A program made the position numbers and the translations under genes. Under the pieces are notes generated by a model. That model was not told the origin of the DNA and searched no databases. It was given only the letters and a program-made list of their open reading frames with translations. DNA of 64,000 nt from an uncultured Bacilli bacterium (GTDB lineage Bacteria > Bacillota_I > Bacilli_A > RF39 > UBA660), in the NCBI GenBank assembly GCA_910584255.1, contig CAJTXV010000001.1, forward strand, positions 81,318 through 145,317, in the 5' to 3' direction. This document shows, one piece after another, positions 2,127-35,373 of the stretch; position 1 is the stretch's first letter; each line of letters begins with the position of its first letter.

Positions 2127-2672
2127 TTATTTTTCTATTTCCTCCATCTCTTCATTCTTGAGACTATCCTTATTGATTTCATACTTTTTTCTAAATTCAT
2201 CTAATTTTTTTAAATCTTCATCAACTACTAAATCCAATGTACCATTGTCATTAAAATTAAAAACCTCATTATATAAAAAATCATAAAATTCTTTTCCTAC
2301 CCAGACATTACTATCATCTTTTGCAACAACATTATTGTCTTTATCATATTCTAACTCAATATCATATATTTTATGCCTATACAAAATTCGATCAATTAAA
2401 TCTAATTCATTATTTTTCCATGGCATCTTTTCCATTTCAATTTCTTTTTCGATATCCATTATTTTTTTTCTAAATTCTTCATTAAAGATTTTATTTGATT
2501 CAATTGCTTTTTCTATACAAGTTGAAACTTTTTCAAGTTTTTCATTATCAATCCAATCTATTGGAACATTCATAACTTCACTTATCATTATTGCAACATA
2601 AACTTCATGAAATGTACGATCATTATATTTTATATAATCAATATTTCTTTTTACCAAATCTTTATCAATCAT
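2127..2672 (-). CDS. Hypothetical acidic protein; C-terminal tail ...EEMEEIEK
   Basis: ORF tightly packed in a co-oriented array; no identifiable domain. Confidence 0.45.
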   Translation of the reverse strand: MIDKDLVKRNIDYIKYNDRTFHEVYVAIMISEVMNVPIDWIDNEKLEKVSTCIEKAIESNKIFNEEFRKKIMDIEKEIEMEKMPWKNNELDLIDRILYRHKIYDIELEYDKDNNVVAKDDSNVWVGKEFYDFLYNEVFNFNDNGTLDLVVDEDLKKLDEFRKKYEINKDSLKNEEMEEIEK

Positions 2673-2687
2673 AGTACGTATTCCTTT

Positions 2688-3239
2688 CTATCTTTCTATT
2701 TCTAATTCTTCTTCTCTATCATCCAAATTTATCCATTTATTGTAAACTACATCATAGTCTTGTTCAGTAATATCTGCTAGTCTCTCAAAGCACCTTTCTC
2801 TTACGATACTATCTGTATAACCAATAATGGTATATACATCACCAACTCCAGAATTTAATAAATTATTAAGATCCTTAAAAGAAAAATTAGAGAGATGCTC
2901 TCCAACTTCATCTTGTGGATAGTTTTCTTTATACCAATCTTTTATAGAAACATTCAAAAGCTTATTTTTAGTTCTTAAATATTCAGAGAATTCACTACTA
3001 ATGTTTTTTGACTGTTGTTTTAACTCATTATAATCAATTTTAAAAAAATAATCAGATAATCTAGCATTGTTAATCAAATCATTTATTTTCTTATTGACAA
3101 AATCTTCAATATTATTAATAGTATTTTCATCCCAATTCAAACGATGAAAAGTGGTGCTAGCTGGACATTTTCCTTTTTTACTTTCTAAATATAATGTTAT
3201 TGAACAATGATCATATTTATAACCTAATATATATTTCAT
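2688..3239 (-). CDS. Hypothetical protein; C-terminal tail ...EEELEIER
   Basis: ORF in the packed array; GAGGAGG RBS directly upstream of ATG. Confidence 0.45.
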   Translation of the reverse strand: MKYILGYKYDHCSITLYLESKKGKCPASTTFHRLNWDENTINNIEDFVNKKINDLINNARLSDYFFKIDYNELKQQSKNISSEFSEYLRTKNKLLNVSIKDWYKENYPQDEVGEHLSNFSFKDLNNLLNSGVGDVYTIIGYTDSIVRERCFERLADITEQDYDVVYNKWINLDDREEELEIER

Positions 3240-3516
3240 ATAGTTAATTCCTCCTCTTTTTCTATTTCTTGTTCCTCTTCTTTTTCGTAATCAAAATCAT
3301 TTAAAAGTCTATCTCTCATATCCTCATTATAAATCGAATCATAGGCATCACTTATTTCAAATGCTTTATTTATAATATCGCTATTTAAATCTCCAACAGT
3401 TAATCCTTTAACATCATGAAGTAATATGCTACATAAAACTCTCGATCATACTTATCTTCTTGTAAATATTTCATGTGTCTTTCTATTGCTTCTCTATTCA
3501 TAATATTTCCCCCTTC

Positions 3517-4389
3517 TTAATACATTCCATCTGTAATATCAATATCTTCTACTGATTTATCTAAACTATATTCTTTATCAATTTTATTTTTTAATTCTAC
3601 TAAATAATCAGAAAATGTTGGGCTATTATATTTTCCATAGTAACGATAACTATTTGAACCAAAATCATAAGAATATAATTTATTATTAATATATCCTTGA
3701 GTTTTCAAAGGAACATCAATTTTATATTCTTTTAATAGATATAAAAATACATTTTGTGATGTTTGTTTATAATAATCATCATTTTTATAAAAACTTAATA
3801 TTTCAGATAAAACATTTTTTCCTTCAAAGATTGCAATTTTAGCATTTGTTATTTTGTCTTTAAATATTTGATTCTTTTCCTTCACCTCTTTATTTCTTCT
3901 TTCTTTCATATCTTCTTCTGCTTTTCTTCGCATTTCATCTTTTATTGCAATATATTGCTCTCTAGATTTTTTTGCATTTTCATAAAGATCAGGATGATTC
4001 TTTTCTATATAAGCAAGTTCAATATAATTAAAAAAGCCACTATAATTAAGTCTAGTATTAATTGATTCTAAATAATTGTCAAATATGGGTTTCACTTTTT
4101 CTTTAATATAATTACAATATCTCAGGCAATCATCTTTCTCATATTCATTTTTACAAATATCATTAATCAATGAGTTGAATCTGTTAAAAGATATATATTG
4201 ATTGTAGAACATCCAATATTCTCCATCTTCACCTTTAAAAAGAAGATTAGCACCATTTGAACTTTTATCCTCATCTAAAATATAAAAATCATAATTATCA
4301 TAATTAATAACAGTAATTTTTTTATTTCTTACTATTGGATTATCATTTGAACTTAAATAATGAACTTTTGCTTCTTTAGTTTCTATCAT
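3517..4389 (-). CDS. Hypothetical protein
   Basis: 290-aa ORF with a lysine-rich coiled-coil C-half. Confidence 0.45.
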   Translation of the reverse strand: MIETKEAKVHYLSSNDNPIVRNKKITVINYDNYDFYILDEDKSSNGANLLFKGEDGEYWMFYNQYISFNRFNSLINDICKNEYEKDDCLRYCNYIKEKVKPIFDNYLESINTRLNYSGFFNYIELAYIEKNHPDLYENAKKSREQYIAIKDEMRRKAEEDMKERRNKEVKEKNQIFKDKITNAKIAIFEGKNVLSEILSFYKNDDYYKQTSQNVFLYLLKEYKIDVPLKTQGYINNKLYSYDFGSNSYRYYGKYNSPTFSDYLVELKNKIDKEYSLDKSVEDIDITDGMY

Positions 4390-4392
4390 TAT

Positions 4393-4689
4393 CTATCTCT
4401 CCACTTCCTCTTGCTCATGCAAGATTTCGTTTGCTCTATCAAAAGTTTCCTTATCTATAATTGGTTTATGCGTTTTTCCTATATCTTTATAATCTTTTTC
4501 CATTTGTTTCAGTTCATCAATCAAATCTGGAGCTTTCCATCCCAGGTGTTCTTTTACTTCATATAAATAACCACTTAAAGTATGCGTTTTTAAATATTCA
4601 AAAGAATACATTCGATCTTTTACATCATTTATAACAAGCCACTCTTCAACTTTAAGCATAAAATCTATATCTTTATCATTGTTATTCAT
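4393..4689 (-). CDS. Hypothetical protein; tail ...EQEEVER
   Basis: 98-aa ORF, 3-nt spacing to the neighbouring ORF. Confidence 0.4.
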   Translation of the reverse strand: MNNNDKDIDFMLKVEEWLVINDVKDRMYSFEYLKTHTLSGYLYEVKEHLGWKAPDLIDELKQMEKDYKDIGKTHKPIIDKETFDRANEILHEQEEVER

Positions 4690-4690
4690 C

Positions 4691-5425
4691 TTAATATTCC
4701 ATCTCCTCTTCTATTTCGTTTTTGTCTATCTGTTTTTCTTCTTCACAACAATTCTTTCTATCCTCATTTATAACTAGATCCAGTTGGTTATCCATAAATA
4801 AATTCATAAGAGCAGGTAATCCATTTTCTTTTTGAAATAAATATTCTTCTTTATATAAAGGAACTAATTGATAAAAATTAATTTTTTCTTTTGTACCTAA
4901 TTTTAAATCTAATTCCTTTCTATCTATATTCATAGCAGGTACTAAAAGATTAGATACAAATTTCACTTTAGGATCAAGTGGAATATTTCCATCTTCACTA
5001 TGAGAAATTGTATGTCCTATTCCTATCCAAGAATTATCCTCTATTGCTAGTCTACCTATCATCTTTAATTGGCTTATTACCCAACCATGTTTTTTTGGTA
5101 TATCTTTCATATCACAATCGGCTGGAATATAAGCAACCAGCTCAGTTCTCTCATATTCTCCTTTTGGTAAAACATCTGGAACATTCATTTTATAAGCACC
5201 AACACCTTCAGTAATTAATTTATAATAGTAACAATCTTCAGTTGGAGGTATTACTAAAATATCTACATGTATATCTGGAGAATATAGTTCATGATAAACC
5301 ATAAATTTTCCAAAATTATCTTCAATATAATTTTCAAATTGTTTCATCTCTTCCTGTGTATAAATGTACTTTGGCTTTTCCTTAAATCCCTTATAAGCAA
5401 ATTTAGCTTTCTTAATAATACTCAA
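4691..5425 (-). CDS. Hypothetical protein (possibly SUFU-like/immunity-type fold, unverified); tail ...EIEEEMEY
   Basis: 244-aa ORF; no confident motif identified by eye. Confidence 0.4.
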   Translation of the reverse strand: MSIIKKAKFAYKGFKEKPKYIYTQEEMKQFENYIEDNFGKFMVYHELYSPDIHVDILVIPPTEDCYYYKLITEGVGAYKMNVPDVLPKGEYERTELVAYIPADCDMKDIPKKHGWVISQLKMIGRLAIEDNSWIGIGHTISHSEDGNIPLDPKVKFVSNLLVPAMNIDRKELDLKLGTKEKINFYQLVPLYKEEYLFQKENGLPALMNLFMDNQLDLVINEDRKNCCEEEKQIDKNEIEEEMEY

Positions 5426-5461
5426 ACTATCATCTCCTATTCATTATTGTTTTTAAAATTA

Positions 5462-5773
5462 TTACTTATTCAATAAAAATAACAATTTCTCATAACCAGC
5501 AGCATTTAGTAATTTGATTATAGAAATATCTAATTCTTCAGAAATATTCATCAGCATTTCTATACTTGGTTTCTGAATTCTACCTCTTTCAAGATCATTT
5601 ATTGATGTATTACTTACTCCAATTCTTCTTGATAATTCTCTTTGAGATATTTTTTTAATTCTTCTTCCATTTTCAATTAAGTCCTTTAAAGCAAATGTGT
5701 TGCATTTTGGTTTATGATATGAATTTAATTTTTCCTCTTTTAAGTTACTCATATTCTGACTCACTTTCATCAT
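5462..5773 (-). CDS. XRE-family helix-turn-helix transcriptional regulator
   Basis: ISQRELSRRIGVSNTSINDLERGRIQKPSIEMLMNISEELDISIIKLL, a classic HTH_3 pattern. Confidence 0.65.
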   Translation of the reverse strand: MMKVSQNMSNLKEEKLNSYHKPKCNTFALKDLIENGRRIKKISQRELSRRIGVSNTSINDLERGRIQKPSIEMLMNISEELDISIIKLLNAAGYEKLLFLLNK

Positions 5774-5960
5774 CTTCTAAATCAAAGCATATATACTTTT
5801 CACAATAATCATTAAATATATTTAAAAAATGTTGTTTATTTTTATATCCACCAGACATAAATCCACCATTACTCTCATAATTAAAGTCAATCACTTTAAA
5901 AAATTTTTCTTCTAGATCAATTTCTATCTTAATTTCAAGTTTTTTCTTTTTCTTTCTCAT
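5745..5960 (-). CDS. Small hypothetical protein
   Basis: 71-aa ORF overlapping the HTH gene start. Confidence 0.3.
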   Translation of the reverse strand: MRKKKKKLEIKIEIDLEEKFFKVIDFNYESNGGFMSGGYKNKQHFLNIFNDYCEKYICFDLEDDESESEYE

Positions 5961-5969
5961 ATTATCTCC

Positions 5970-7655
5970 TTATTTTGTTTTATAATAATTACTCACTTTT
6001 TGTTTTTCATTTTTTGAAATAGCTTCAATATCTTCACCATTAGCTTTTCCTATTTCTTGATTATTTCTATCATATAGGACATACTCTTTGTCATCGACTA
6101 AATATACAATTCCTCTGTTATCAAAACTAATCCAAGCAACGCTATTTTTCGGAACATAAAAAAAGTATTCGCTATAAGGTATACGAATACAATACTTATC
6201 CTCTGTAGTTCTTTTTTCATCAATCATATTTTTACTAATTGAAACACTTTTGATATATCCTTTTTCAGTTTCTAAAGAAATGCCTCTTATTTTTTCTAAC
6301 TCACTAGCTTTATTTTTTAGATAAGTTAAATAAGCATATTTTTGATTCATATCTATTTTCATCTTATTAGCTGTTGATATAATTTCTTCAACCTCTTCAG
6401 TTGTTTCTACATTTAATTCTTTTTTTAAATCTAAAAATGCTTGAACTTCATTAGGCAGTTCAGTATCAGCATGATAAATATCTTGCTGTTCTAAATATAA
6501 ATCATAATTATCCAAATATTTTAAATAAAGATTACACAAGGGAACTCTTAACTGAAGTGTCTCATGTTCTGAAAGCAATGATTGATACTCTGTTTCTCTT
6601 GATTCTATATCATTTTTGATCTCTTGAAGTTGGATTTCTAAAGCATCATAATTATATATCTCATGATTATTTAAAAAATTAATTGTATCCACTAACTTAT
6701 GATACCTTCTTACTTCCATATATCTAGAATTATAATATTTAAAATATTCAGAGTTAGCATCTAAGTCCTCCATTGTATATAAAACAGAATGTTTTGATAA
6801 TTTTGCAAGTTGATCATAAATATTTAAAATAACACTATCTCTTACATTTAATTCATATTTTTCAAAAAAGATATTTTTCTGATTTTTTCTTTTATCTTTA
6901 AAAAATTTTTTTAAGGAATCTTCACTATATTCATCTCCTAAAGTTTTCATAGTAACAAATCTATCTTTACCGTAAGGACGAATTTTAATATTTTTCCCTA
7001 ATTTTATTTGATAACCTTCAAATGAAAGTTGCTCTAATAGTTCATCAAAAGAAAAGCATCTTTCTTTCAATGATTCTAACATTTCTATTATTTGAGTTTT
7101 CCAATTTTTATTAGCCATAGCATATAAATATTTATTTTTGTGATAATGTCCAATTTTAGGAGCATCTTGGATAATCTTCAGTCCATGTTGCAATGATATT
7201 TCATCACTAGCATCTCTTAAACCATAAAGTCCTTCAATTGGATTAGATAGTCTGTCTTCTAGTTTTCTTCCTTTCAAATTTAATGATGATAAGCAGAAAT
7301 GATTATGAATATGCAATCTATCGACATGCGTACACACTACTACCTGAAAGTCTGGATATAACTTTTTAACAAGTTCAACCCCAATTTGGTGGGCTTCTTC
7401 TGGTGTTAGATTCTTTTCCTTAGGATCAAATGACTGATAACCATGATAACATGTTCGACTATCATTATTTTCCTCAACATGAAATTTTTGACTATTTACT
7501 TGCATTTCATAAGCAGCAAACTCTGAAGAACAATTTATTCCTGTTACTAATGTTCCTCCTTTTGTTTTTTTGGGATTTTTAATATAGTCAATACAGTCTA
7601 CTCGTCCTTGAATTCCGTGTACACTCCATCTAGCTGTTGTTGGCAGAAATATCAC
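5970..7655 (-). CDS. Conjugative relaxase, MobA/VirD2 (MOB-P type, PF03432-like)
   Basis: Histidine triad VVCTHVDRLHIHNHFCLSS (HxDxxHxHxH-like relaxase motif III); 561 aa; directly downstream of a MobC-like gene. Confidence 0.7.
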   Translation of the reverse strand: MIFLPTTARWSVHGIQGRVDCIDYIKNPKKTKGGTLVTGINCSSEFAAYEMQVNSQKFHVEENNDSRTCYHGYQSFDPKEKNLTPEEAHQIGVELVKKLYPDFQVVVCTHVDRLHIHNHFCLSSLNLKGRKLEDRLSNPIEGLYGLRDASDEISLQHGLKIIQDAPKIGHYHKNKYLYAMANKNWKTQIIEMLESLKERCFSFDELLEQLSFEGYQIKLGKNIKIRPYGKDRFVTMKTLGDEYSEDSLKKFFKDKRKNQKNIFFEKYELNVRDSVILNIYDQLAKLSKHSVLYTMEDLDANSEYFKYYNSRYMEVRRYHKLVDTINFLNNHEIYNYDALEIQLQEIKNDIESRETEYQSLLSEHETLQLRVPLCNLYLKYLDNYDLYLEQQDIYHADTELPNEVQAFLDLKKELNVETTEEVEEIISTANKMKIDMNQKYAYLTYLKNKASELEKIRGISLETEKGYIKSVSISKNMIDEKRTTEDKYCIRIPYSEYFFYVPKNSVAWISFDNRGIVYLVDDKEYVLYDRNNQEIGKANGEDIEAISKNEKQKVSNYYKTK

Positions 7656-8962: not shown

Positions 8963-9030
8963 TTTTTCTCCTTTCTCACTCTAATAGAAAATACCCCTTT
9001 CAGAGTATAGAAATTTAATCTATCAAGCAT

Positions 9031-9075
9031 GGTGTTTACACACCCTAAAGCTTGTTAGGGAAAACCCTAAAACCC
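9031..9075 (-). promoter_or_regulatory. Candidate oriT/nic region upstream of the mob operon
   Basis: Intergenic 8963-9076 contains IR GGTGTTTACACACC (9031-9044) overlapping IR CCCTAAAGCTTGTTAGGG (9043-9060), then AAAACCCTAAAACCC. Confidence 0.35.
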
Positions 9076-9076
9076 T

Positions 9077-9475
9077 TTATGTAGTCTCCGACAGTTTAGA
9101 ATTTTTTTTAAAAATTTTATTGAATTTTTTTTGCTTCTTTTGATATAAATTTTCTTGAATTCTTATATCTAAAAATTTAATAATTTCTTTAGATGTACCA
9201 TTTTGGTACTCTAAATCTTCAATATATTCATTAATGATTTTTTTATGAATATCACAAAAATAATTATTAGAAATTTCTCTTTTTAATTGATTTATTAATT
9301 TATTATTGTATTTTATTTTATCAATTACTGCTTCTCTATTACTACTAATTTGATCTTCTTTTAGCGATAAATAATAATGTTTTATAAAAGGATTAAGTGG
9401 TGAATTATCCAATTCTCTTATTAACTTTTTAATTATTCTTTTAGTGTTTTTTCTTTCTATTTTATTAGTAGTCAT
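9077..9475 (-). CDS. Hypothetical protein
   Basis: 132-aa K/E-rich ORF. Confidence 0.4.
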   Translation of the reverse strand: MTTNKIERKNTKRIIKKLIRELDNSPLNPFIKHYYLSLKEDQISSNREAVIDKIKYNNKLINQLKREISNNYFCDIHKKIINEYIEDLEYQNGTSKEIIKFLDIRIQENLYQKKQKKFNKIFKKNSKLSETT

Positions 9476-10365
9476 TTTGTTATATCCTCCTCTATTTCTT
9501 CTTCTAAATTTGATAATAAGTTAGATTTTATATTATCAATAAAATCATCAAAATCTTTTTCTATATAGTTTTTAGAATCTTGATTTTTGCATTCAACATC
9601 AAATATTCGTTCATTAATTATATCGTATTTAAACCTAAAATCATCAATGCTACTTTCGGAAGAGGTATTATATTCTTCTTCTGTATTGTAATAATAAACA
9701 TAACCTTCTCCTATAACAATGCTTCCATCTTTTATACATGATGGATAGTCAAAGCCAATTTTAATTTTATATGGTTTGTTAGATATTTCTAATGGTAAAC
9801 TAAGACATCTTTCATTATTATACCAAGAAAAAAAGTCATCCATTGAAATAGATTTTACTTGCTCTAATGTAATATTATTGTTCTCATATATTTCTCTAGC
9901 AAGAGATTGTCCAACCTCAATTGGATTTAAAAATTCACTGTAAAATTCTGAACATTTATCTATTAGTGTTATTAAATCTTCATCTGATATAAGTGGTTTT
10001 TCATTTGTAATCCCAATAAAATATAAATATTCATATATATTGCTATGCAAATCAAAAGATTCAAAATGTTCTTTAATAGATCTAAAATTACTTATCCTTG
10101 TGTCCAATATTTTATAGTTTAAAATACGTAATAATTCTTTTTTTGTATCTTCTGTAGTAAAAAGATATGGGAATCCATATTCATAATTATTATCTACTTG
10201 TACATTTTTTCCAAAATATATTTGATAGTAGTCTTTAGTATCCTCTTTAGAAATAGTCTTTAATAATTCCCATTTGTTTTCTGAAAAGAATTTATCTATT
10301 TTTTCTATATAATTTATATCTTTAAACTCCTCTAAAATATTTACTTTTCTATATTCCTGTGTCAT
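9472..10365 (-). CDS. Hypothetical protein; tail ...EEEIEEDITK
   Basis: 297-aa ORF. Confidence 0.45.
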   Translation of the reverse strand: MTQEYRKVNILEEFKDINYIEKIDKFFSENKWELLKTISKEDTKDYYQIYFGKNVQVDNNYEYGFPYLFTTEDTKKELLRILNYKILDTRISNFRSIKEHFESFDLHSNIYEYLYFIGITNEKPLISDEDLITLIDKCSEFYSEFLNPIEVGQSLAREIYENNNITLEQVKSISMDDFFSWYNNERCLSLPLEISNKPYKIKIGFDYPSCIKDGSIVIGEGYVYYYNTEEEYNTSSESSIDDFRFKYDIINERIFDVECKNQDSKNYIEKDFDDFIDNIKSNLLSNLEEEIEEDITK

Positions 10366-10395
10366 TATGAAATCTCCATTCTGGTTTTAAAATTT

Positions 10396-11805: not shown

Positions 11806-12019
11806 TGTTGTTACCCTGGATTTTTACATCCAAATCTTGTTGAAGTTGATATATCTTTTCTTGCTGTTTCTTATAATCATACAACACTTTTAATTGTTTA
11901 TCGTATCCTGCTATTACACCATTTATTGCTTTAATTTTTTCTAATTCCTTATTCTTTAATACTTCCAAACGTTCAATTTTCTTCTCTAATTGTTTATTCA
12001 ATGTGTTTTCTCCTTTCAT
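11798..12019 (-). CDS. Small coiled-coil protein
   Basis: 73-aa ORF, heptad-like K/E/L pattern. Confidence 0.35.
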   Translation of the reverse strand: MKGENTLNKQLEKKIERLEVLKNKELEKIKAINGVIAGYDKQLKVLYDYKKQQEKIYQLQQDLDVKIQGNNNE

Positions 12020-12567
12020 TCAAACATTTCATCAACAATATCCAATTCATAGTTTTTTTCTGCTTTATCAAGTATTTTTTTATCTAAAATAATTCCAATG
12101 TTTTTAGATATATCTTTATCTTCTTTTAACAATAATCCTTGCCATATCCCATTTAAATGATTAATCCCATTTAGAAATTTAATACCTGTTCCTCCTGCTT
12201 CTTTCCAATCTAATAAATTTTTTGTATAATCATCAATTAAATAATCGTTTGAAGTTATTTTGTTGGGAATATATTTGTATTTTATTTCACCATAAGGAAC
12301 AAATATTCTTTTATTGATAGGCAGTGTAGGTAAATATTTATCTAGCCATTTTTTCTTTTCTTCTAAAGCATAATTACTATCAATCAAAAAAGAAGAAAGA
12401 ATATAAATATCTTTCCCCTCTTGGATTAATTTTTTAGTTTCTTCCAGCAAATGTGGATTTGGTTTTAGTGATTCATAATATCCTTTTTGATATAATTCAT
12501 CATTGGATTTAACATTTTTCCATTCAGCTAAAGTTCCATCCATATCAATAAAAATTCTCATTTGCAT
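12016..12567 (-). CDS. HAD-superfamily 5'(3')-deoxyribonucleotidase-like protein
   Basis: IFIDMDGTLAEW (DxDGT HAD motif I); size and layout resemble the NT5C/YorS family. Confidence 0.6.
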   Translation of the reverse strand: MQMRIFIDMDGTLAEWKNVKSNDELYQKGYYESLKPNPHLLEETKKLIQEGKDIYILSSFLIDSNYALEEKKKWLDKYLPTLPINKRIFVPYGEIKYKYIPNKITSNDYLIDDYTKNLLDWKEAGGTGIKFLNGINHLNGIWQGLLLKEDKDISKNIGIILDKKILDKAEKNYELDIVDEMFE

Positions 12568-15706: not shown

Positions 15707-15940
15707 TCATTTTTCTATTTCTTCCATTTCATAATTTGATAATACTAATTCCATTCCTTTTTCCTGAAAGTAATCTAACATAAGTTCATATTGTTCTTCT
15801 ACAGAATCACCTTTATCTGCTTCAAAACTTCCTATTTTAATATCCTTATGAAATGTTTTTCTTCCAATATCACGCAAATTTTCTATTATTTCAAAAAACT
15901 TTTTTGCATCAGAAAATTCTTTTTTATAATTTTTATTCAC
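15707..15940 (-). CDS. Small hypothetical protein; tail ...EMEEIEK
   Basis: 77-aa ORF; AAAGGAGA RBS for the downstream gene overlaps its stop. Confidence 0.4.
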   Translation of the reverse strand: MNKNYKKEFSDAKKFFEIIENLRDIGRKTFHKDIKIGSFEADKGDSVEEQYELMLDYFQEKGMELVLSNYEMEEIEK

Positions 15941-25457: not shown

Positions 25458-25458
25458 T

Positions 25459-26708: not shown

Positions 26709-28652
26709 TCAAATTGTATCTAATAGTTCATCTGTAAGATTCTTAGTTGTTAATAAAATTTCACCATTATCAAGTTTTTTTTCTTCTTCAAGAGTTATTT
26801 TTCTTGCCCTGAATTCTGGTTCTATCTTTACAAAACCTAATCCTAATTCTTTAAATAGTTGCTGCTTTCTTCTGGTCTCTTTAGTTTTCCTCCTTTCTAT
26901 CTCATGCACATATTTATTTTGAATTGTTCCTTTTTCATCCCATGCTTCAAACAATTCTCCATATCTAGGATGTTTTGACAAGTCAAACATTTTTGAATAA
27001 AAAGGTCGAAGACCTGATACTAATAAAATACAATATCCTTTTTCCATTCTGGCAATTTCATCAATAAAAGCTAATTCTCTACCAACTACATCCCAATTAG
27101 TAGAAGAAGAACCTTGTTTTGAATAAGTTCTACCAGATGACTTTTTATACCATGTTTTTTTTCCAAGCATTGATGACATGTATTCTAATGTTTCCTTAGA
27201 TCTTGATCCCATAAACAAAACGTAATCACAACAATCTAATGCTGTTTCCCAGTTATCTTTATATACTTTCTTTAACTGACTTAAACTTTGTAAACATGTT
27301 GTTATACCACAATTAAGTCCACGAACGTATGCTAAGTTTTCCAGGTATCTTGGTATAACTCCTAGCTGACTCCATTCTTCGCAGTAGACCTGACAAGGAG
27401 TTGCTAAAGAACCATTGTTATGGTTAGCATTATAATCTATAATAGAAAATATCTGAGTATACATAATACTAGCAATAAAATTAAATGTACTGTCATTAGG
27501 ACTATTAATTATAAAATAGGCAATTTTTCCTTTATCTCCTTTAGCTCCAATACGATTTAATTCCATAGTATCATCAACAGTAATTGATTCTAATTCAGCT
27601 ATATTAAATGGAGATAATCTTGCTGATGCAGTAATAATAATGGTACTCATCATTTTAGTTGATGAAGCTGAGACTTTAAAATGTTTCCATTGTTTAATCC
27701 CTATATTATTAGGGTCTTTTGTTTCCCAAACCTTAAACATATTACCTAAAACTGAATCGCCATTTTTATCAGGTTCAGCTAACCTTATTAATTCAAGTAC
27801 AGTTTTAAAATTTCTATCCTTTTCTTCATAATTAAAAATTACATAATAAATAATGCTTTGAAGAAACATAGATTCACAACGTTCCCAAAAAGGATCTCCT
27901 GTGTTTGACTCAATCGTTTCACTTTTTGTATTTAACATTAAAGTGTTAATCAATGTCATAACATCATCTTCTGCTATCCACTCTTCCCCTTCAGAATTTT
28001 CATCTACATATCTATTTACTTTTTTTATATAAAGTAAAGGATTAAAATGATCAGACTTATATTTTTCTACTAAATTTAAAACTCGAATATCATAACCTTT
28101 ATTTACTAAAGACATACCACAATCACGAAGTAATTCTCCCTTTGGATCAGTCATTACAATTGTTTCGCCATTAGCACTCAGTAAATTTGGCTTAAAATAA
28201 TATCTAGATTTTCCAGTACCAGGTCTACCAATCAAAATAACATTACGATTTCTTTGAGATACTTTCATATTTTTTGAAAAAAGTTCAGTAGAAGTAAAGA
28301 TTTGATTGTTTTCAAAATCGCTATCACGATATTTTAGCGTGGCTTTAGGTTCTTCCCACTCTGAGCTGCCATGAGTATCTTCTTGTATATTTTTCTTATT
28401 TTGTATTATATAACTATAAATAATCATTACTACAAACATTCCAACAAATAAAGAAGTTGAAATAGTTTTAGCATTTAAAATAACTGGAGTTGTAATCACA
28501 TGAAGTTTATCTAATGCTTCAGTAAGATATTCAAATTTAAACTCGCCATTTATTTCAGAGAGACTACTAACTCTAAGAGCATAATATGAGGCAATTAAAA
28601 AAATTATAAAAATAATCCATTTACTACCTTTATGAACTCTTTTAATGAGCAA
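26709..28652 (-). CDS. Type IV coupling protein (VirD4/TraG family)
   Basis: N-terminal TM helices; Walker A ILIGRPGTGKSRYYF; TDPKGELLRD motif typical of TraG/VirD4. Confidence 0.8.
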   Translation of the reverse strand: MLIKRVHKGSKWIIFIIFLIASYYALRVSSLSEINGEFKFEYLTEALDKLHVITTPVILNAKTISTSLFVGMFVVMIIYSYIIQNKKNIQEDTHGSSEWEEPKATLKYRDSDFENNQIFTSTELFSKNMKVSQRNRNVILIGRPGTGKSRYYFKPNLLSANGETIVMTDPKGELLRDCGMSLVNKGYDIRVLNLVEKYKSDHFNPLLYIKKVNRYVDENSEGEEWIAEDDVMTLINTLMLNTKSETIESNTGDPFWERCESMFLQSIIYYVIFNYEEKDRNFKTVLELIRLAEPDKNGDSVLGNMFKVWETKDPNNIGIKQWKHFKVSASSTKMMSTIIITASARLSPFNIAELESITVDDTMELNRIGAKGDKGKIAYFIINSPNDSTFNFIASIMYTQIFSIIDYNANHNNGSLATPCQVYCEEWSQLGVIPRYLENLAYVRGLNCGITTCLQSLSQLKKVYKDNWETALDCCDYVLFMGSRSKETLEYMSSMLGKKTWYKKSSGRTYSKQGSSSTNWDVVGRELAFIDEIARMEKGYCILLVSGLRPFYSKMFDLSKHPRYGELFEAWDEKGTIQNKYVHEIERRKTKETRRKQQLFKELGLGFVKIEPEFRARKITLEEEKKLDNGEILLTTKNLTDELLDTI

Positions 28653-29850
28653 TTTCTAATTCCTCTTCCTTATCTATAACTTTTTCTATTGGATTATTTT
28701 TTTCAGCAAATTCATCTGCCTCTTTGACTAAATCTGCTGTTTTGGATTTTTTTTTACTATTTTCATCAACTAATTTCTTTGTATCAGTTTCTTTAACAAT
28801 TGCAATAATTTTTCCATCTGGTTGATGAACTGCTGCATAATCCTTACTTTTATATTTTTCTTTAAATAATTTGTAATCATTAAAATCATCTAATTCTAGT
28901 TGAATAATATCATTAATATTGCTTTCTGATTCAATATCTCTAGCACCATTTATACCACATTCTTTAATTGGACTATCAAGTGGAGCAAATGACTTATATT
29001 CTTCTAAATCATCTGAAGAAATTGCAATAATCATTTCTTTATCATTATAAACCACTGCTCCATGACTTCGTAAATCAAAGAGTTGTTCTCTTATCTCACA
29101 ATATTGTTCTTTTGTGATAACTTGACTACAATAATTTTTTTGATAATCTTTAACTGCACATGATCCAAAATCCTCACCTATTTTATTTAAAGCATCAACA
29201 CTTAAATTCATTCCACGAGGAACTAAAGGTTCATAATCTTTTTCATCAATAACTCCATCTTTATTTATATCTACAAGTTCACTTTTTGAATATTGTTTTA
29301 CTCTATTTGGTGGTATTTTCTCTAGTTGCTCATTTAAAAAAGATAGCTTACTTTTATTAAAAATTAATACATATCTATCATCTAAATTCTTTTGTTCATC
29401 TTCTATAGATAACTTTTTATATTTTTCAGCTTGTGCTTTACATATATTATGAAGAAAAGAAATTTTTTGAAATGTTTTTTTTCTTTCATTCCATTTTTGA
29501 TATTTAATTTCGTTTTTAGCTAACTTTTCTTGTTTATGAAGTGATTGATTTTTCCCTTCTTCTCCACTTGGGTCCATTTTTCTGATTCCCATTAATACAT
29601 TATTTTCTCGACATGCTGTAATAATTTGTTTCGCCTCAGCTTTCGTAAGTGGTGGTGTTACATAAAGTTCTTTTGTAGGACCATCGTTACGAAGGGCTTT
29701 CATAGAAGAAGAAAAATGCTTCTGATAATATCTTTTTATTCGCTTTATGAATTTACCAAAAAATTTTGCAAATATTTTAGTAGATTTTCCAGATACTGTA
29801 ACAGTTTTCTCGGCTGTGTGTTCTAGGTCATGTTTCGCATTACCATCCAT
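28642..29850 (-). CDS. Hypothetical protein upstream of the T4CP (PcfB/DUF3801-type position); tail ...EEELEIAH
   Basis: 402-aa ORF; positional analogy only. Confidence 0.4.
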   Translation of the reverse strand: MDGNAKHDLEHTAEKTVTVSGKSTKIFAKFFGKFIKRIKRYYQKHFSSSMKALRNDGPTKELYVTPPLTKAEAKQIITACRENNVLMGIRKMDPSGEEGKNQSLHKQEKLAKNEIKYQKWNERKKTFQKISFLHNICKAQAEKYKKLSIEDEQKNLDDRYVLIFNKSKLSFLNEQLEKIPPNRVKQYSKSELVDINKDGVIDEKDYEPLVPRGMNLSVDALNKIGEDFGSCAVKDYQKNYCSQVITKEQYCEIREQLFDLRSHGAVVYNDKEMIIAISSDDLEEYKSFAPLDSPIKECGINGARDIESESNINDIIQLELDDFNDYKLFKEKYKSKDYAAVHQPDGKIIAIVKETDTKKLVDENSKKKSKTADLVKEADEFAEKNNPIEKVIDKEEELEIAH

Positions 29851-29852
29851 TA

Positions 29853-32800
29853 TTATGCTGCCTCCTTTTCTATCATTGGAATTTCTTGTATAACACTTTC
29901 TTCTACAGAAGAATTAGCAATAGTATTTTCAAGTAACATATTATTATATGATTCATAAATTTTACTTCCATCATAATGATCGATATATTCGCCACTTGTA
30001 TTTCTGAATCCTATTTGCTCTTGTTTTGAAAGTTCTACAATTACAGATTCCTGATCAATTTTAGTTTTTACTATATTTACATTTAAATATCCTGAAATAT
30101 TGTCTATCGTTAAAGGTATTTCAACAAAATTAGAATCAATTTTACACTTATATTTTGGAATAGTTATAGAAAGTGATTCTTTCTTTTTTTGCCCCTTTGG
30201 ATAAAATAGTTTTAAATATTTAGTGATTTCATTAAAAGATAACTTCTTTTCAAATGTTTTCTTAAATCCTTCCAACTTATATTGAGATATGCCATAATTT
30301 CCAAAGAAATTTTTCCTTGGATAAACAATCAAATAGCTTTTATCATCGGTCCAAACACAATTCTTTTTGATAACAAACAATAAAGTTGAAGGATTATCTG
30401 TTTTAATATAGAACCCTTTTTCAGTTTCTAAATATATTTTTGAACTATATACCCTACTAATTATTTCATTATATTTTGAAGTATAATTATTATCATAAAC
30501 AATACTATCTGTTGGATTTTCTTTTACTTCCTGGATTATTTCATTACTGGGAATTTCTTCTTTTTTTGTCTTATCTTCCCATTTGCTTTTCAAATTATAA
30601 AATGATTTATCATAGATATATTTACCATTTATATCATATATCTTATAAGTTTCACCATATTTTAATTTGGTATAAAATATTTCATCGCTATCTTTCCAAT
30701 CACATTCATTTTTAGGAATATACATGTATTCTTTTGCACCTGTATTTGGAATTCTAACAAAATAATGAGTATCAGTATCAAGATCAGGACGTAATAGCAC
30801 CTGATTTACTGAAAATTCAAAATCTTTTTTTAACTCTTTGATTTGCTCTATATCTTTGTTAATTGTAGATGCTTCTTTTTGTTCTTCTTCATTCGTAATA
30901 ACATTACTTTTATCCAAATTAAGTTTATTATCTAGGTTATTAAAAAAAAGAACTGTCTTATAATTTCCAGTCTTTCCTTTAAATTTATCATCTATGAAAT
31001 CTTTATCGATATTTAAAAATAAATTACCATACTTAAAAAATTGCATTTTATTTTTATTTAAAAATAATCTTTGTTTAATATTACCTTTAATTATATCTAA
31101 AGTTTTATTGTTGTAAGAAAGAATTCCATCAATATCACTTTCATTATTAATAATATAAAGTTCCTCAACCTCTTCTAAAGCAAGTTTTTCTTCATCGCTC
31201 AAGCTATCTTCAAATTGTTTAATAACCATTTGAATTTGATTTTCTTTTAGATTAATTTTAGCACTACCATTGGAATTCTTAATATAAGTTTGTTGAAAAA
31301 TATCAACATATTTAAAACGATTTAATGTCTCATAATCATTATATTCCTTATTATCTTTTAAAAATTCAGCTAGTAATACTTCAGTATTTAAAGAAGCAGA
31401 ACTTGGATCTAAATAATAATCAGGATTACTATTGAATAATGACACTAATCTTTTTTCAATAGTTTCCTTATGGTTATTAAAATAAACAGATAATACCTTA
31501 TCATCCATTCTTGAAATCTTAGATAATAACTCTGTATATAAAAAATTAGTCATAGCTTTTGCAGTTAAATTATCAATTACATTTGCTTTGTTTTCAATTT
31601 TCTTAGGATACATAATTTCATCAAGCTCTTGCTTATTAAATTCAGTATAATCCATGATATATTCTTTAAACAAAGCATCATCATAAGTATTAGTAATTAA
31701 TTTATCTTTTTTTAATGTTTTATATATTTCATAGATATTCTCTACTTTAAACTCAATATCTTTAAAATATTTATGATCTAATAAGAATCTAAACCCAGAA
31801 ACTTTTGACTTTTGTATATCCATAAAAGCGATATTTTTTTCAGATAAGTTTCCAAAATCCTTATAATCACCTATTTTAGAAAAATCTAATACATCTACTT
31901 TAATTCCTTTTTGCAATAACTCAGGGATTACTTTTATCATAGCATCATGACCTGCTTTGTCATTATCTAAAGCTAAAGTAATAGTGGAATGATTCTTTTG
32001 GATTAAGTTTAAATGTTCATCAGAAAGAGCAACACCCATAGTAGCTACTACATTCTCAAATCCAATTCTTTTTGCTCCTGCAACATCTAAAAAACCTTCA
32101 ACAATAATTATTTCATTATTATAAGCTAATGGTTTTGCATTAACAAAATTATATAATAATTCTCTCTTCTTAAAAATATCAGTTTCCTCAGTATGCAAAT
32201 ACTTAATTTCCTCATTTTTGATACCTCTTCCAGCAAAAGAAACAATATTACCTTTTTCATCTTGAATTGGAAACATAATTCGATTAGTAAAAGATTCTTG
32301 GATATTTCCATAGGAATCATATCTTAAATAACCTAGTTTCAATAAATCTTCTCTTTTAATTTTATCATTTTTCTCAGCAATTTTTAGTAATTGTCCTTTT
32401 TCGGAATAACCTAAGTTAAGTTCTTCTATTTGCTTATCCTCAACATTTCTGCCATGAAGATAATCTAAGGGTTCTTTATCAATAACAGTTAAATTATAAT
32501 TAAACAAACGTGCTAAATATTTATTAATTTCTAGCAATCTTTTTTCTTCTTCCGAATATTTTCTTGCTGAAATTTTATACTGATTATCATAATTTTTCTT
32601 GTTTAATCGTGATACATCAATATTTAAATTACAAATTTCTACTACTTTAGCAAGAGTTTGATTATAAGATAAATCCACATTATTCACTTGTTTTTCATAC
32701 TTTTGAACAAATGATATAACATTTCCTGTTACTCCACACGAAAAACAAGTTGCAATATTTTTTTTGGGTTTTACACTTAAACTAGCATGAGTATCATTAT

Positions 32801-32867
32801 GAAAAGGACACAAAGCTTTATTATTATGATTTAATTGAAGACCATAATAATTAAATACGTCTACCAT
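29853..32867 (-). CDS. Conjugative DNA primase (zf-CHC2 + TOPRIM) with a large C-terminal extension
   Basis: CPFHNDTHASLSV...CFSCGVTGNVISFV (CHC2 zinc finger); EIIIVEGFLDVAGAKRIG...ITLALDNDKAGHDAM (TOPRIM E...DxD). Confidence 0.75.
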   Translation of the reverse strand: MVDVFNYYGLQLNHNNKALCPFHNDTHASLSVKPKKNIATCFSCGVTGNVISFVQKYEKQVNNVDLSYNQTLAKVVEICNLNIDVSRLNKKNYDNQYKISARKYSEEEKRLLEINKYLARLFNYNLTVIDKEPLDYLHGRNVEDKQIEELNLGYSEKGQLLKIAEKNDKIKREDLLKLGYLRYDSYGNIQESFTNRIMFPIQDEKGNIVSFAGRGIKNEEIKYLHTEETDIFKKRELLYNFVNAKPLAYNNEIIIVEGFLDVAGAKRIGFENVVATMGVALSDEHLNLIQKNHSTITLALDNDKAGHDAMIKVIPELLQKGIKVDVLDFSKIGDYKDFGNLSEKNIAFMDIQKSKVSGFRFLLDHKYFKDIEFKVENIYEIYKTLKKDKLITNTYDDALFKEYIMDYTEFNKQELDEIMYPKKIENKANVIDNLTAKAMTNFLYTELLSKISRMDDKVLSVYFNNHKETIEKRLVSLFNSNPDYYLDPSSASLNTEVLLAEFLKDNKEYNDYETLNRFKYVDIFQQTYIKNSNGSAKINLKENQIQMVIKQFEDSLSDEEKLALEEVEELYIINNESDIDGILSYNNKTLDIIKGNIKQRLFLNKNKMQFFKYGNLFLNIDKDFIDDKFKGKTGNYKTVLFFNNLDNKLNLDKSNVITNEEEQKEASTINKDIEQIKELKKDFEFSVNQVLLRPDLDTDTHYFVRIPNTGAKEYMYIPKNECDWKDSDEIFYTKLKYGETYKIYDINGKYIYDKSFYNLKSKWEDKTKKEEIPSNEIIQEVKENPTDSIVYDNNYTSKYNEIISRVYSSKIYLETEKGFYIKTDNPSTLLFVIKKNCVWTDDKSYLIVYPRKNFFGNYGISQYKLEGFKKTFEKKLSFNEITKYLKLFYPKGQKKKESLSITIPKYKCKIDSNFVEIPLTIDNISGYLNVNIVKTKIDQESVIVELSKQEQIGFRNTSGEYIDHYDGSKIYESYNNMLLENTIANSSVEESVIQEIPMIEKEAA

Positions 32868-32924
32868 CTTTGCTTGATCTAAAATATCTCGATATAGACT
32901 TATTTTTATCCCCTACCTTTCTTT

Positions 32925-33803
32925 CTACATCCCTAGTTCTAATTCCAAATCATACTCTTCATTTTCTTTGCAAGGAATAGATTCTAATAATAATTCAGCT
33001 TCATTTCGACATTTGTATAATAATTCATTATTTAAATCAGATAATAAATGAACAAAAAAATCAGCATTATATACAATTTTACTTATTGGTAATGAAGTGT
33101 TAGAATCCTTAGTTGATTCATATAGATTTTCTATATATTTGTCTTTATCAAATTCTCGATAATATTTTTGTATTGCTCTAATTATAGTAGAAGGTTTATT
33201 TTCATCAACATGAATTGTAAATGAAAATTCTCTAAGGAATGAATCGAAGTTCCATATATTATTATCCACTTTAGTATCAAATCCATAGTCTTTTATAATT
33301 TTTTGAAATGTTTTTAAAGGCACTACATCAATATCTATATTTTCTCGTTCTTTATAATATCTACCAATTTTAAGTTTTTTAAAGATATTATCTCTATCTG
33401 AAAATCTATCACTCGTTGAGTATCTTAATAAATTTTCTTCTAGTTTTTTTAAATCATAATTGTAATAATCTTTATATCCCTCAATATTATAATGGGCAAT
33501 ATCCCCACATGCCAAAGTAAAAAAGTTATACAATGTTTTACTTAGATTTTCCAAAGTTCCAGTTTTTTGTAATTTTCTATACTCTTTAACTATTTTATTC
33601 AATGAATATACATTATTTCCATTGTATAATATATCAGATTTAAACTTTTTGGTATCCATACATTGCTGAATTATAATTCTATCCTTGGATTCAATTCCAG
33701 TCAAATCTAATCCTTCCAAAATATTTTTTTCTGATTCGATTACAGAACTATTACCAGACAAAGTAATTATACTTCCATTTTTATTTATTTTAATATTATT
33801 CAA
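32925..33803 (-). CDS. Hypothetical protein
   Basis: 292-aa ORF. Confidence 0.4.
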   Translation of the reverse strand: MNNIKINKNGSIITLSGNSSVIESEKNILEGLDLTGIESKDRIIIQQCMDTKKFKSDILYNGNNVYSLNKIVKEYRKLQKTGTLENLSKTLYNFFTLACGDIAHYNIEGYKDYYNYDLKKLEENLLRYSTSDRFSDRDNIFKKLKIGRYYKERENIDIDVVPLKTFQKIIKDYGFDTKVDNNIWNFDSFLREFSFTIHVDENKPSTIIRAIQKYYREFDKDKYIENLYESTKDSNTSLPISKIVYNADFFVHLLSDLNNELLYKCRNEAELLLESIPCKENEEYDLELELGM

Positions 33804-33812
33804 TTAGCCCTC

Positions 33813-34223
33813 CTATTTTTCAATTTCTATTTCTTCAACTTCATTCTTGATATTTTTTTCTATTTCTTTTTGTTTGTTTCTTTCAATCATATTTCTGGCA
33901 TCTCTTGCAATATTATTCCAATTTGTATAATGTGTTATTGATCTTCCAATTATTTTAGGATTTTTCATAATATTAAGTGCAACATTATTATAATTTCTAT
34001 ATTTAAAAGCTGCTAAATCATTTATCATAAGACTAATATATCTGTCTTCTTCTTTATCCTTTAATATTGCTGAAAATACATAATGATCTTTGTGATAAGA
34101 ATAAACTTCTAAATTATATTTAGACACTTGCTGCTTTAAATCTCTTATCATTTGATTTGGATAATCTTCATATATTTCTTTTGTTTTAAGGATTCTCGTT
34201 TCTAGCCATTCTTGATAATTCAT
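33813..34223 (-). CDS. Hypothetical protein; tail ...EVEEIEIEK
   Basis: 136-aa ORF. Confidence 0.4.
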   Translation of the reverse strand: MNYQEWLETRILKTKEIYEDYPNQMIRDLKQQVSKYNLEVYSYHKDHYVFSAILKDKEEDRYISLMINDLAAFKYRNYNNVALNIMKNPKIIGRSITHYTNWNNIARDARNMIERNKQKEIEKNIKNEVEEIEIEK

Positions 34224-34341
34224 AATTTTCCTCCTCTATAGCACATTTTCCTGATACAACACAACATGAATATAATACTAAGATAATAAAAGCAACTACT
34301 AATACTACCAAAGATATAATTATAAAATTAATCATTTAAAT

Positions 34342-35373
34342 TCACCTTTCTATTTCATAATCTTCTGTATTTACTTGGGATTCGATATTATGACACATCT
34401 TATCAAATATTTCTTTATCCTTTTCAATGGCAATACTATTTCTTTTTGTATTAAAACAGGCAATAACAAAGTTTCCACTACCAGCAAACTGATCAAGTAA
34501 TGTTTCATAAGGTTTAGAAATGTACTCAATAATATTTTCTAAAAGACTTACTGGTTTTTCAGCTTCCATTACTTTCTCTTTTTTGCCTCTAGGTTGATAG
34601 TCAAAAGAAGTGGGAAGCATACCAGAAGTTCCTTTCATATAACAAACTTCTAATTCATTTTCTACCAATAGATCTCTAACTTCATAAGAATTTTTACCTT
34701 TAATATCAATATTATTTTTTAAGGCAGTTTCAATATTTTTTTTGGCATCCAATTTTAATGCTCTTGGTTCACCTTTAGAAAAAATCATAACATCTTCTGA
34801 GTTTTTTGATTTTCTACCAGTATTTGCAATAAAAGTTCCTTTTATCCAAGGAACTTTTGCAAAATACTTAAAGCCACTTTTAATTGCCATCTCTTTTATT
34901 TTATAAAGATACTCAAAATTTATTTCAGATTCTTCAGGAAGAAACTCTACCATAAATGAACCATTTTTTAAAACTCGTTGTTTTTCATCAAAATCTTTTT
35001 GATTATATTTAAACAATTCATAAGTTGCGAATTTTCTATTTCCTCCTGTAAGAGCTTTGTTTAAATCATAAGGATGATCAGTTATAATGCCATCTATCGA
35101 ATTAGATTCAATCATAGATAAGTCTCTTCCATCACCGTTAATTAATAAACAATTGTTTTGATTTCCATCAATTTGAGATGAAACTTTATAAACACCTCTT
35201 GATATTTTTTGAAACAATCCTTTATCTACACCCTCGTATATTCTTGCCCTAATTGATTCATTATTTACATTCAATTTATTCACCTTTTTAACCAATGTTG
35301 TAGCTTCTTGAATTGTAAATTGTTCTTCATCTAAAAAGTATTGAAACAAATTCATTTGGATACTATTATTCAT
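34342..35373 (-). CDS. Orphan beta-class DNA N6-adenine/N4-cytosine methyltransferase; tail ...EDYEIER
   Basis: Motif IV variant ITDHPYDL (DPPY-like) precedes motif I LLDQFAGSGNFVIA; AEKPVSLLENII matches the HPTQKP-type block. Confidence 0.75.
   Translation of the reverse strand: MNNSIQMNLFQYFLDEEQFTIQEATTLVKKVNKLNVNNESIRARIYEGVDKGLFQKISRGVYKVSSQIDGNQNNCLLINGDGRDLSMIESNSIDGIITDHPYDLNKALTGGNRKFATYELFKYNQKDFDEKQRVLKNGSFMVEFLPEESEINFEYLYKIKEMAIKSGFKYFAKVPWIKGTFIANTGRKSKNSEDVMIFSKGEPRALKLDAKKNIETALKNNIDIKGKNSYEVRDLLVENELEVCYMKGTSGMLPTSFDYQPRGKKEKVMEAEKPVSLLENIIEYISKPYETLLDQFAGSGNFVIACFNTKRNSIAIEKDKEIFDKMCHNIESQVNTEDYEIER

Follow-up and report, generated by a model that had tools for sequence, protein, structure and literature searches.

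The closest described counterparts of the system reported here are type IV secretion systems (T4SSs) in which protein substrates are recognized by their ends. Signals at the C-terminus have been described for T4SS substrates (PMC11288057), F-plasmid T4SSs translocate the SSB protein (which binds single-stranded DNA), PsiB, and other plasmid proteins (PMC8406263), and in Legionella Glu-rich C-terminal signals are read by DotM, an associate of the coupling protein (PMC5802825). The choice of protein substrates by conjugation machines is poorly understood. In this study, we analyzed a stretch of 64,000 nucleotides from an uncultured Bacilli bacterium of the RF39 lineage (contig CAJTXV010000001.1, positions 81,318 to 145,317; hereafter the window), in which a conjugative element carries a short acidic C-terminal tail on many of its proteins. 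Selection acts on this tail as a peptide, i.e., as a short linear motif.

The tail resembles the Dot/Icm E-block (PMC5802825) in that an acidic C-terminal signal is found on many unrelated proteins of one secretion system and lies in a disordered region; the tails contain EE-x-E-x-E, in keeping with the Glu-rich, EExxE-like makeup of the C-terminal ~30 residues in E-block substrates. However, the E-block is a loose composition within the last ~30 residues of eukaryote-targeting effectors of a Gram-negative type IVB secretion system, whereas the present tail is a crisp alternating peptide at the extreme C-terminus in a Gram-positive-type CD1115/Tn1549 conjugative T4SS. The E-block is read by the coupling-protein-associated DotM, and a reader of the tail in the coupling-protein module is likewise proposed here; no DotM, DotL, or IcmSW domain was found among the Pfam matches for the element proteins scanned. 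As in known conjugative protein transfer, where plasmid SSB and establishment proteins go with the DNA and C-terminal segments can suffice, the bearers include an SSB; known conjugative signals, in contrast, are heterogeneous, positively charged or hydrophobic, and without consensus, and no element-wide motif has been described among them. The tails also depart from the positively charged C-terminal signal of VirB/D4-type systems (Agrobacterium VirE2/VirF, the Bartonella BID tail), which shows as a net positive charge or Arg-rich pattern over the last ~20 residues, as they are strongly acidic. Full-text literature searches on acidic or shared C-terminal signals in T4SSs of Gram-positive bacteria or integrative and conjugative elements, on RF39 conjugation, and on ArdC translocation signals returned no description of the motif. 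Nor do the reviews consulted report a protein-substrate signal for Gram-positive systems, one from 2025 on T4SSs having no passage on the subject. We rate the tail as a C-terminal signal of the recognition or secretion kind, exceptional both in its crispness and in how much of its elements it pervades.

The tail motif and its distribution

The conjugative element is encoded at ~1-36,000 of the window, which has a GC content of ~26% and almost all of its genes on the minus strand. It comprises a large serine recombinase, a sortase, a MobA/VirD2 relaxase, a CHAP hydrolase, a VirB4-like ATPase, PrgI, a TrbL/VirB6-like protein, a VirD4-type coupling protein (T4CP), a DnaG-type primase, and an N6/N4 DNA methylase. 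Pfam matches for the VirD4-like T4CP, VirB4-like ATPase, VirB6/TrbL-like protein, PrgI, cell-wall hydrolase, and MobA/VirD2 relaxase assign it to the Gram-positive CD1115/Tn1549 type of T4SS. A tblastn search with the T4CP found plasmid genes annotated 'VirD4-like conjugal transfer protein, CD1115 family', the nearest plasmid homologues being just 33-36% identical.

The strict ending E-[ILVMFYP]-E-[KR] closes 11 of the 42 genes in 2127-35373 and 0 of the 29 in the rest of the window. By composition 0.02 such tails are expected, and residue shuffles gave a mean of 0.026 (maximum 2 in 20,000). At least four acidic residues occur in the last eight of 23/42 element genes vs 1/29 elsewhere in the window. 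Inside the same proteins the strict 4-mer is not over-represented (10 internal matches in 10,479 residues), so that the enrichment is specific to the C-terminus. The enrichment supposed in a preliminary description of this DNA thus held against shuffled sequences (11/42, with ~0.03 expected), and the tails quoted there are all present at the ends of minus-strand open reading frames (ORFs). Its figure of at least 12 strict tails has to be lowered to 11, and the motif is broader than the E-x-E-x-E-[K/R] given there. In it, acidic and hydrophobic (hyd) residues alternate as ([DE]-hyd)2-3-[DE], followed by 0-2 residues (K/R, M/I, Y, or YE), with the consensus [DE][DE]-hyd-[DE]-hyd-[DE]-(K/R or M/I or Y[DE]). 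Related loci yielded 109 unique tails, 95 of which match [DE]-hyd-[DE]-X0-2 at the terminus; their endings include K (23), R (14), I (13), YE (13), Y (9), and M (6). The tail-bearing genes of the window, loose variants included, are as follows.

2127-2672, minus strand: 181-aa ORF, no Pfam match; tail ...EEMEEIEK (tail codons 2130-2153)
2688-3239, minus strand: 183-aa ORF; tail ...EELEIER, the next gene's Shine-Dalgarno sequence lying beyond the stop codon
3517-4389, minus strand: 290-aa ORF; variant tail ...EDIDITDGMY, with a similar ...DITDDMY ending in related loci L022/L023
4393-4689, minus strand: 98-aa ORF; tail ...QEEVER
4691-5425, minus strand: SUFU-domain protein, 244 aa; tail ...EIEEEMEY
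5745-5960, minus strand: 71-aa ORF; loose acidic tail ...ESESEYE
9472-10365, minus strand: 297-aa ORF; loose tail ...EEEIEEDITK
10396-11805, minus strand: resolvase-domain protein, 469 aa; tail ...EIDEIEYE
12016-12567, minus strand: NT5C (deoxynucleotidase) protein, 183 aa; tail ...DIVDEMFE
12574-12969, minus strand: SSB (PF00436), 131 aa; tail ...DDFDLDMDR where the canonical tip would be DDD[IL]PF
12989-13360, minus strand: 123-aa ORF; tail ...EDFELEK
13401-14447, minus strand: 348-aa ORF, paralogue of the 340-aa protein; tail ...DDIEMEM
14672-15694, minus strand: 340-aa conserved protein; tail ...EDLEIER, residues 326-340 disordered in the AlphaFold2 (AF2) model
15707-15940, minus strand: 77-aa ORF; tail ...EMEEIEK
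15953-16534, minus strand: 193-aa ORF; tail ...EEEPDLDF
16536-16892, minus strand: 118-aa ORF; tail ...DEIEREK
16956-17402, minus strand: DUF7222 protein, 148 aa; tail ...EYDEIDKD
17487-18062, minus strand: 191-aa ORF; tail ...VEEIEK, then an 84-nt gap
18468-18683, minus strand: 71-aa ORF; tail ...EEPEIEK, ~41 nt of DNA in common with the tail of 18983-19384
18983-19384, minus strand: 133-aa ORF; tail ...EEPEIEK
28642-29850, minus strand: 402-aa lineage-specific protein 'p402', 11-nt overlap with the T4CP start, candidate T4CP adaptor; loose tail ...EELEIAH
32925-33803, minus strand: 292-aa ORF; loose tail ...DLELELGM
33813-34223, minus strand: 136-aa ORF; tail ...EEIEIEK
34342-35373, minus strand: N6/N4 DNA methyltransferase, 343 aa; tail ...EDYEIER, then a 118-nt gap

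Most bearers are unrelated to one another, as the preliminary description had it, but 13401-14447 and 14672-15694 are a paralogous pair (44% identity). These tandem paralogues belong to a widespread family of ~340 aa specific to these elements, for whose confident AF2 model Foldseek found no PDB match. Likewise, many bearers lie between the relaxase and the T4SS genes as described, but others are downstream of the relaxase (2127-5425) or upstream of the coupling protein (28642-35373). The SSB had been equated with the 193-aa ORF ending EEEPDLDF; the Pfam SSB is instead the protein of 12574-12969, which ends DDFDLDMDR.

The comparison was extended to ~90 related loci in all (22 found through the 340-aa family and 80 through the T4CP), from metagenome-assembled genomes (MAGs) labeled Bacilli, Tenericutes, or Mollicutes. 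In these loci the tail is carried by 269 of 1121 unique proteins (24%) vs 0.42% of their internal windows, a 57-fold difference. The elements with the tail range in GC content from 26% to 51%, with T4CP identities down to ~48%. Three control loci (L015, L020, and L025) have the tail on 0 of 75 proteins, and the motif is absent from CD1115-type plasmids of Anaerococcus (pAPRE01), Brevibacillus, and Enterococcus (E. faecalis pMG2200), whose T4CPs are 33-36% identical, from seven chromosomal genes beyond the integrase, and from the 35-64 kb part of the window. The motif is confined to this family of conjugative elements, as the preliminary description had anticipated; to judge from the sequences, its lineage is one branch of the Tn1549/CD1115-type elements of gut Bacilli, comprising RF39-like MAGs and a 51%-GC relative. 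No near-identical DNA was found among annotated plasmids and phages.

Two of the control loci, L020 (JAFUBW010000014.1) and L015 (CANRQD010000001.1), encode a homologue of the 340-aa protein between their VirB6-like and VirB4-like genes, without the acidic tail. Neighboring proteins there have Arg/Lys-rich ends (KRWKTRKSK, KRFKRKGSR, RNTRKNYSR, KKTYKGRSR, REKSRKKER, and SIFARKRRF), which may be a different flavor of shared tail or simply the Lys-rich ends typical of AT-rich genomes. As the gene order differs and such ends are common in AT-rich genomes, we place no reliance on a switch to basic tails.

Selection on the peptide

A tail of this composition could be a by-product at the nucleotide level: purine-rich GAA/ATA/AAA 3' ends in an AT-rich genome might serve as Shine-Dalgarno (SD) or coupling sequences for the next gene, or as recombination 'boundary' repeats. 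Several features point that way. The string GAA ATA GAA AAA TRA recurs, median downstream gaps are short, the Ile of tail E-I-E is encoded by ATA in 85% of cases and that of internal E-I-E in 60%, and AAG, AGG, and GAG are enriched in tails, a modest nucleotide-level signal that weighs against a pure peptide signal. The two EEPEIEK tails (18468-18510 and 18983-19025) are near-identical over ~41 nt of DNA, while the remainder of both ORFs is unrelated. This shared DNA implies that the tail segment was recently copied between genes and suggests that tails are able to move by recombination. The preliminary statement that codon usage differs between copies consequently stands only in part, given this pair and the ATA bias.

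The behavior of the tail in orthologues argues for the peptide. In the 340-aa protein, 29 of 31 orthologues retain [DE][DE]-hyd-[DE]-hyd-E-x, down to ~36% identity, in forms such as EDLEIER, EEYDIER, EDYELEK, DDMEMER, ESFDLEK, DDFDLER, and DDFEFER. D and E interchange freely, as do I, L, M, F, and Y, which preserves the residue class and not the sequence, and the linker before the tail is not conserved. Retention in orthologues while the upstream sequence diverges, which the preliminary description had proposed as a check, is thus borne out. In the AF2 model of this family, the one family modeled, the mean predicted local distance difference test (pLDDT) score is 86.6, but the linker and tail residues 326-340 score <50, as expected of a free linear motif. 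The motif also persists in an element of 51% GC, whose T4CP is 50% identical to that of the window and identical to a protein annotated as from Faecalibaculum rodentium; there the tails are WAEEEIEK, DEREMEL, EEIEEMYER, EEMEKEL, FDFEYEM, and TEMEMEL, written with the codons GAG, GAC, ATC, and CTT.

Translational coupling fares no better. Over 710 gene junctions, an SD sequence lies within the last codons of 36% of tailed genes vs 38% of tail-less ones, and the distance to the next ORF exceeds 20 nt in 26% of tailed genes. In the window, many tails precede an SD sequence that lies beyond the stop codon, or gaps of 46-118 nt, and the tightly coupled T4SS genes of the same operons are without the motif. 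An AT-rich or purine-bias explanation is ruled out by the 51%-GC element, an SD or coupling explanation by the equal SD overlap with and without the tail and the wide gaps, and paralogy of the bearers by their unrelatedness outside the one pair. The SD/purine-bias alternative raised in the preliminary description therefore fails, its protein-level reading stands, and a nucleotide-level origin is essentially excluded, with a probability that we consider negligible.

Bearers, candidate receptor, and possible functions

None of the bearers in the window has a predicted transmembrane (TM) segment, and ~23 of the ~30 soluble proteins outside the transfer machinery carry the tail. The motif is absent from every T4SS membrane component, from VirB4, from the relaxase and the 183/265-aa proteins upstream of it, and from the helix-turn-helix regulators. 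The main machinery genes are the following.

5970-7655, minus strand: MobA/VirD2-type relaxase; without tail, ends ...YYKTK, which is kept in relatives
22463-24886, minus strand: VirB4-like ATPase; without tail
26709-28652, minus strand: VirD4-type coupling protein (CD1115 family), 2 predicted TM segments; without tail motif, candidate tail reader
29853-32867, minus strand: DnaG-type primase, 1004 aa, within a conserved primase-p402-T4CP module; tail-less in this element

In a Pfam census of 108 non-redundant bearers, the commonest domains were MPTase-PolyVal (6), ArdC-N (6), Resolvase (4), SSB (3), and DUF3846 (3), followed by N6/N4 methylase, LPD1, DpnD/PcfM, NT5C, DUF4314, and DUF1281_C (2 each) and by SUFU, ToxN, LPD11, RadC, YodL, DnaG, MuF-C, N6_Mtase, and AAA_28 (1 each). 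Among homologues of the methyltransferase in a 50%-identity library, the ~345-aa architecture retains acidic tails, whereas longer fusion architectures do not. The ToxN-family protein, a toxin of the type III toxin-antitoxin endoribonuclease kind, is encoded at 5041-5658 of the 51%-GC element (L030/L088) and ends ...WAEEEIEK; if the tail is an export signal, it would be a toxin sent to recipients.

This repertoire recalls the polyvalent proteins. As far as the consulted parts of Iyer et al. 2017 (PMC5512222) go, MPTase, ArdC-N, DNA methylases, LPDs, RadC, YodL, DnaG primase, and MuF-C occur there fused in giant polyvalent proteins, which are inferred to travel with the DNA via the conjugation apparatus, and solo versions of the domains are also noted beside T4SS genes. 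The same parts of that paper agree with the present elements in the domain repertoire and in the T4SS/Tn1549-like element type, and mention no such tail. Here, however, the domains are found in separate small proteins, each with the shared tail, and not in one giant polypeptide: rather than two to fifteen fused domains, the bearers, mostly of 60-470 aa, have one domain or an ArdC-N+MPTase pair.

The prominence of these domains brings in a reading of the tail as a mark for turnover or processing, either a C-terminal degron for establishment proteins or the site or remnant of an MPTase-type peptidase. MPTase-PolyVal and ArdC-N are among the commonest bearers, the consulted part of PMC5512222 proposes that MPTase processes polyvalent proteins, and transient action would suit anti-defense proteins. 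Yet the proteins scanned in the window, where the full set of tails is present, include no MPTase-PolyVal or ArdC-N domain, and a vestigial linker would not stay conserved over such divergence. To our knowledge, bacterial C-terminal degrons (ssrA-like LAA, MuA type) are non-polar or basic, not acidic. We regard a turnover or processing mark as very improbable.

A generic physico-chemical role with no specific partner, such as a solubility tag or 'entropic bristle', a DNA-mimic or autoinhibitory segment, or a holdase-like tail, would account for tails that are highly acidic and disordered, for the many DNA-binding bearers, and for the variation in the terminal residues. It would not need a strict hydrophobic alternation at fixed distances from the C-terminus, nor lead one to expect position-wise conservation over ~36% identity. 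In addition, the pI of the bearers ranges from 4.2 to 9.2, so that they include acidic proteins needing no added charge, and related CD1115-type elements do without the tail. Owing to the position-specific alternation and its deep conservation, both this improbable role and the degron or processing role are the less likely ones.

The simplest reading of the tail is a docking peptide recognized by a single partner, for which the VirD4-type coupling protein with p402 is the foremost candidate. All but one of 56 related loci (55) contain the primase-p402-T4CP module, and the CD1115-type plasmids whose T4CPs are just 33-36% identical have no tails. The p402 protein is conserved, with an invariant D56-G57 and basic positions K6, K60, R183, and KKK366-368; it and the other conserved unknowns have no Pfam or NCBIfam match, and no p402 homologue was found in 72,556 PLSDB plasmids. 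Because p402 is lineage-specific, translationally coupled to the T4CP, co-conserved with it (55/56), and without a homologue in PLSDB, it is a candidate adaptor. The T4CP modeled alone with AF2 has a C-terminal region of low confidence.

The T4CP has a conserved ending of its own, TD[ED]LL[DE]x[ILM], after a basic stretch (ERRKTKETRRKQQ; 26709-26740, homologues P0202-P0321). This ending is acidic and hydrophobic and distinct from the cargo motif. In the F plasmid, the acidic C-terminal tail of TraD binds TraM and makes the contact between coupling protein and relaxosome. Both cases involve an acidic C-terminal peptide with hydrophobic residues, but in F the T4CP carries the peptide, with a relaxosome protein as its partner, whereas here the tails are on the cargo and the T4CP ends in its own motif.

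In the mechanism that we propose, nearly every soluble accessory protein of the lineage would have had the motif appended, and it would serve them all as an address label. A single receptor encoded by the element would recognize the tail in extended form, holding the hydrophobic side chains in a groove and the carboxylates on a basic surface, and would so bring the bearers to the type IV secretion channel. Establishment proteins, among them those for anti-restriction, DNA modification, and ssDNA binding, would by this route enter the recipient with the DNA; the lineage may thus have 'unbundled' giant polyvalent proteins into many small ones, each with its own copy of the signal. From the sequence evidence we infer that a single receptor reads the tail, that this receptor is the T4CP module, and that the outcome is export of the bearers to recipients, a common docking tag that we consider plausible though somewhat short of probable. 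The fuller form, a portable translocation signal for a Gram-positive conjugative T4SS, read by the VirD4-type T4CP with p402 and injecting at least 20 'unbundled polyvalent' anti-defense or establishment proteins with the DNA, is put forward a little more tentatively. This reading is favored because the tag is on soluble non-machinery proteins of families expected to act in a new host, because SSB co-transfer, C-terminal T4SS signals, and DotM-read acidic signals are known elsewhere, and because p402 is lineage-specific and co-conserved with the T4CP.

The principal rival is that the tail is a hub-binding motif acting within one cell, in the manner of the SSB tip or of T7 gp2.5/gp4, and recruits accessory proteins to one platform without export; the platform could be the relaxosome, the SSB-coated T-strand, the primase or replisome, or a host protein. 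The SSB C-terminal tip, D-D-D-[IL]-P-F, and the acidic tails of T7 gp2.5/gp4 are disordered acidic docking peptides with hydrophobic residues. The element's SSB bears the family motif at the usual position of the tip, the tail is disordered and acidic as in SSB, with a variable linker (in the 340-aa family), and proteins acting on DNA are frequent among the bearers (ArdC-N, methylases, resolvase-domain proteins, NT5C, and RadC). The likeness to SSB is an analogy only: most tails end in K/R, M/I, or Y-E, none of the 109 unique tails has the Pro-Phe terminus, so that the canonical D-D-D-[IL]-P-F is absent, and the motif is carried by >20 non-SSB families, with PF00436 in 1 of 23 window bearers and 3 of 108 census bearers. 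Moreover, with SSB one protein's tail binds many partners, whereas here many proteins carry one tail. Among the bearers, SUFU, ToxN, and many tiny ORFs have no evident connection to DNA, and no candidate hub of matching distribution was found besides the T4CP/p402 module. We consider such a hub unlikely, though it would be compatible with export, as the hub could be the transferred nucleoprotein itself.

The hub also gains some support from the position of bearers next to a conserved region resembling an origin of transfer (oriT).

8963-9076, no strand assigned: candidate oriT, just upstream of the relaxase operon, with hairpins TTAGGGttttCCCTAA and GGTGTgtaaACACC, then ATGCTTGATAG

This oriT-like region is kept in related loci L004, L006, L008, L010, L011, and L013, with compensatory changes in the stems (e.g., TTAGGAgtcaGTCCTAA), and the conserved DNA reaches into the 3' end of the ORF at 9077-9475. 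The tail genes at 9.4-19.4 kb are transcribed toward it. In RP4 and F, the relaxase operon enters the recipient last; if the same applies here, the bearers at 9.4-19.4 kb would belong to the leading region and the T-strand would be their template. Conservation extends to either side of the hairpins and so singles out neither a nicked strand nor a polarity of transfer.

Several observations weigh against export through the T4CP module. Shared ancestry confounds the correlation between T4CP clade and tail. The primase is a classical case of a transferred protein and yet tail-less in this element, while p402, the proposed adaptor, itself has a loose tail. The last 0-2 residues of the tail vary, which is unusual for motifs read via the terminal carboxylate. 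Were the bearers leading-region genes with early expression in the recipient, exporting their products as well would be in part redundant. Finally, the conjugative T4SS signals in PMC11288057 are positively charged or hydrophobic C-terminal ones, or N-terminal or internal; none is acidic.

The export reading, if it holds, has several consequences. The tail may be the first clear signal at the sequence level for the delivery of proteins via a Gram-positive conjugation machine. A tag of 6-8 residues would then predict from sequence which proteins an element sends to, or deploys in, its hosts, dozens of uncharacterized small proteins would become candidate anti-defense effectors, and both a portable tag for engineered protein delivery between gut Firmicutes and a defined peptide-receptor pair on which mechanism and structure could be studied would be at hand. 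If Faecalibaculum rodentium can be cultured and mated, the function of the motif becomes accessible to experiment.

Apparent integration site and neighboring genes

The probable integrase of the element lies at the window start.

1-1102, minus strand: 5' part of a large serine recombinase, 591 aa, probable integrase; starts at 1102 and continues beyond the window start

In the source contig (L113, 11023-15688), the 3' end of the recombinase gene overlaps an isoleucyl-tRNA synthetase (IleRS) gene that is without its first ~57 codons, including the HIGH motif, and whose product shares only 33% identity with the complete IleRS at 44950-48045 of the window. The element appears to be integrated into one ileS, with a divergent second ileS nearby. 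The 5' ileS fragment split off by the integrase was searched for in the window and not found, and neither was the far boundary of the element; the 35-64 kb part may therefore be element cargo and not chromosome.

The CHAP cell-wall hydrolase gene (20570-22420, minus strand) is intact over ~625 codons and 57% identical, in a single frame, to a 604-aa homologue in L012. It has no ATG, GTG, or TTG at the homologous start, where ATA or CTG follows a good SD sequence; owing to this lack of a standard start codon, ORF lists show just a 380-aa ORF and an apparent 750-nt gap.

Two surface proteins of ~1,100 aa, with Listeria-Bacteroides repeats, SpaA-type domains, a C-terminal TM segment, and a KKKKRK anchor, are encoded at 36976-43691. 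Together with the sortase (1390-2124), they flank the transfer genes, and they are probably mating adhesins of the element. The adhesin pair is also present upstream of the primase in related locus L032.

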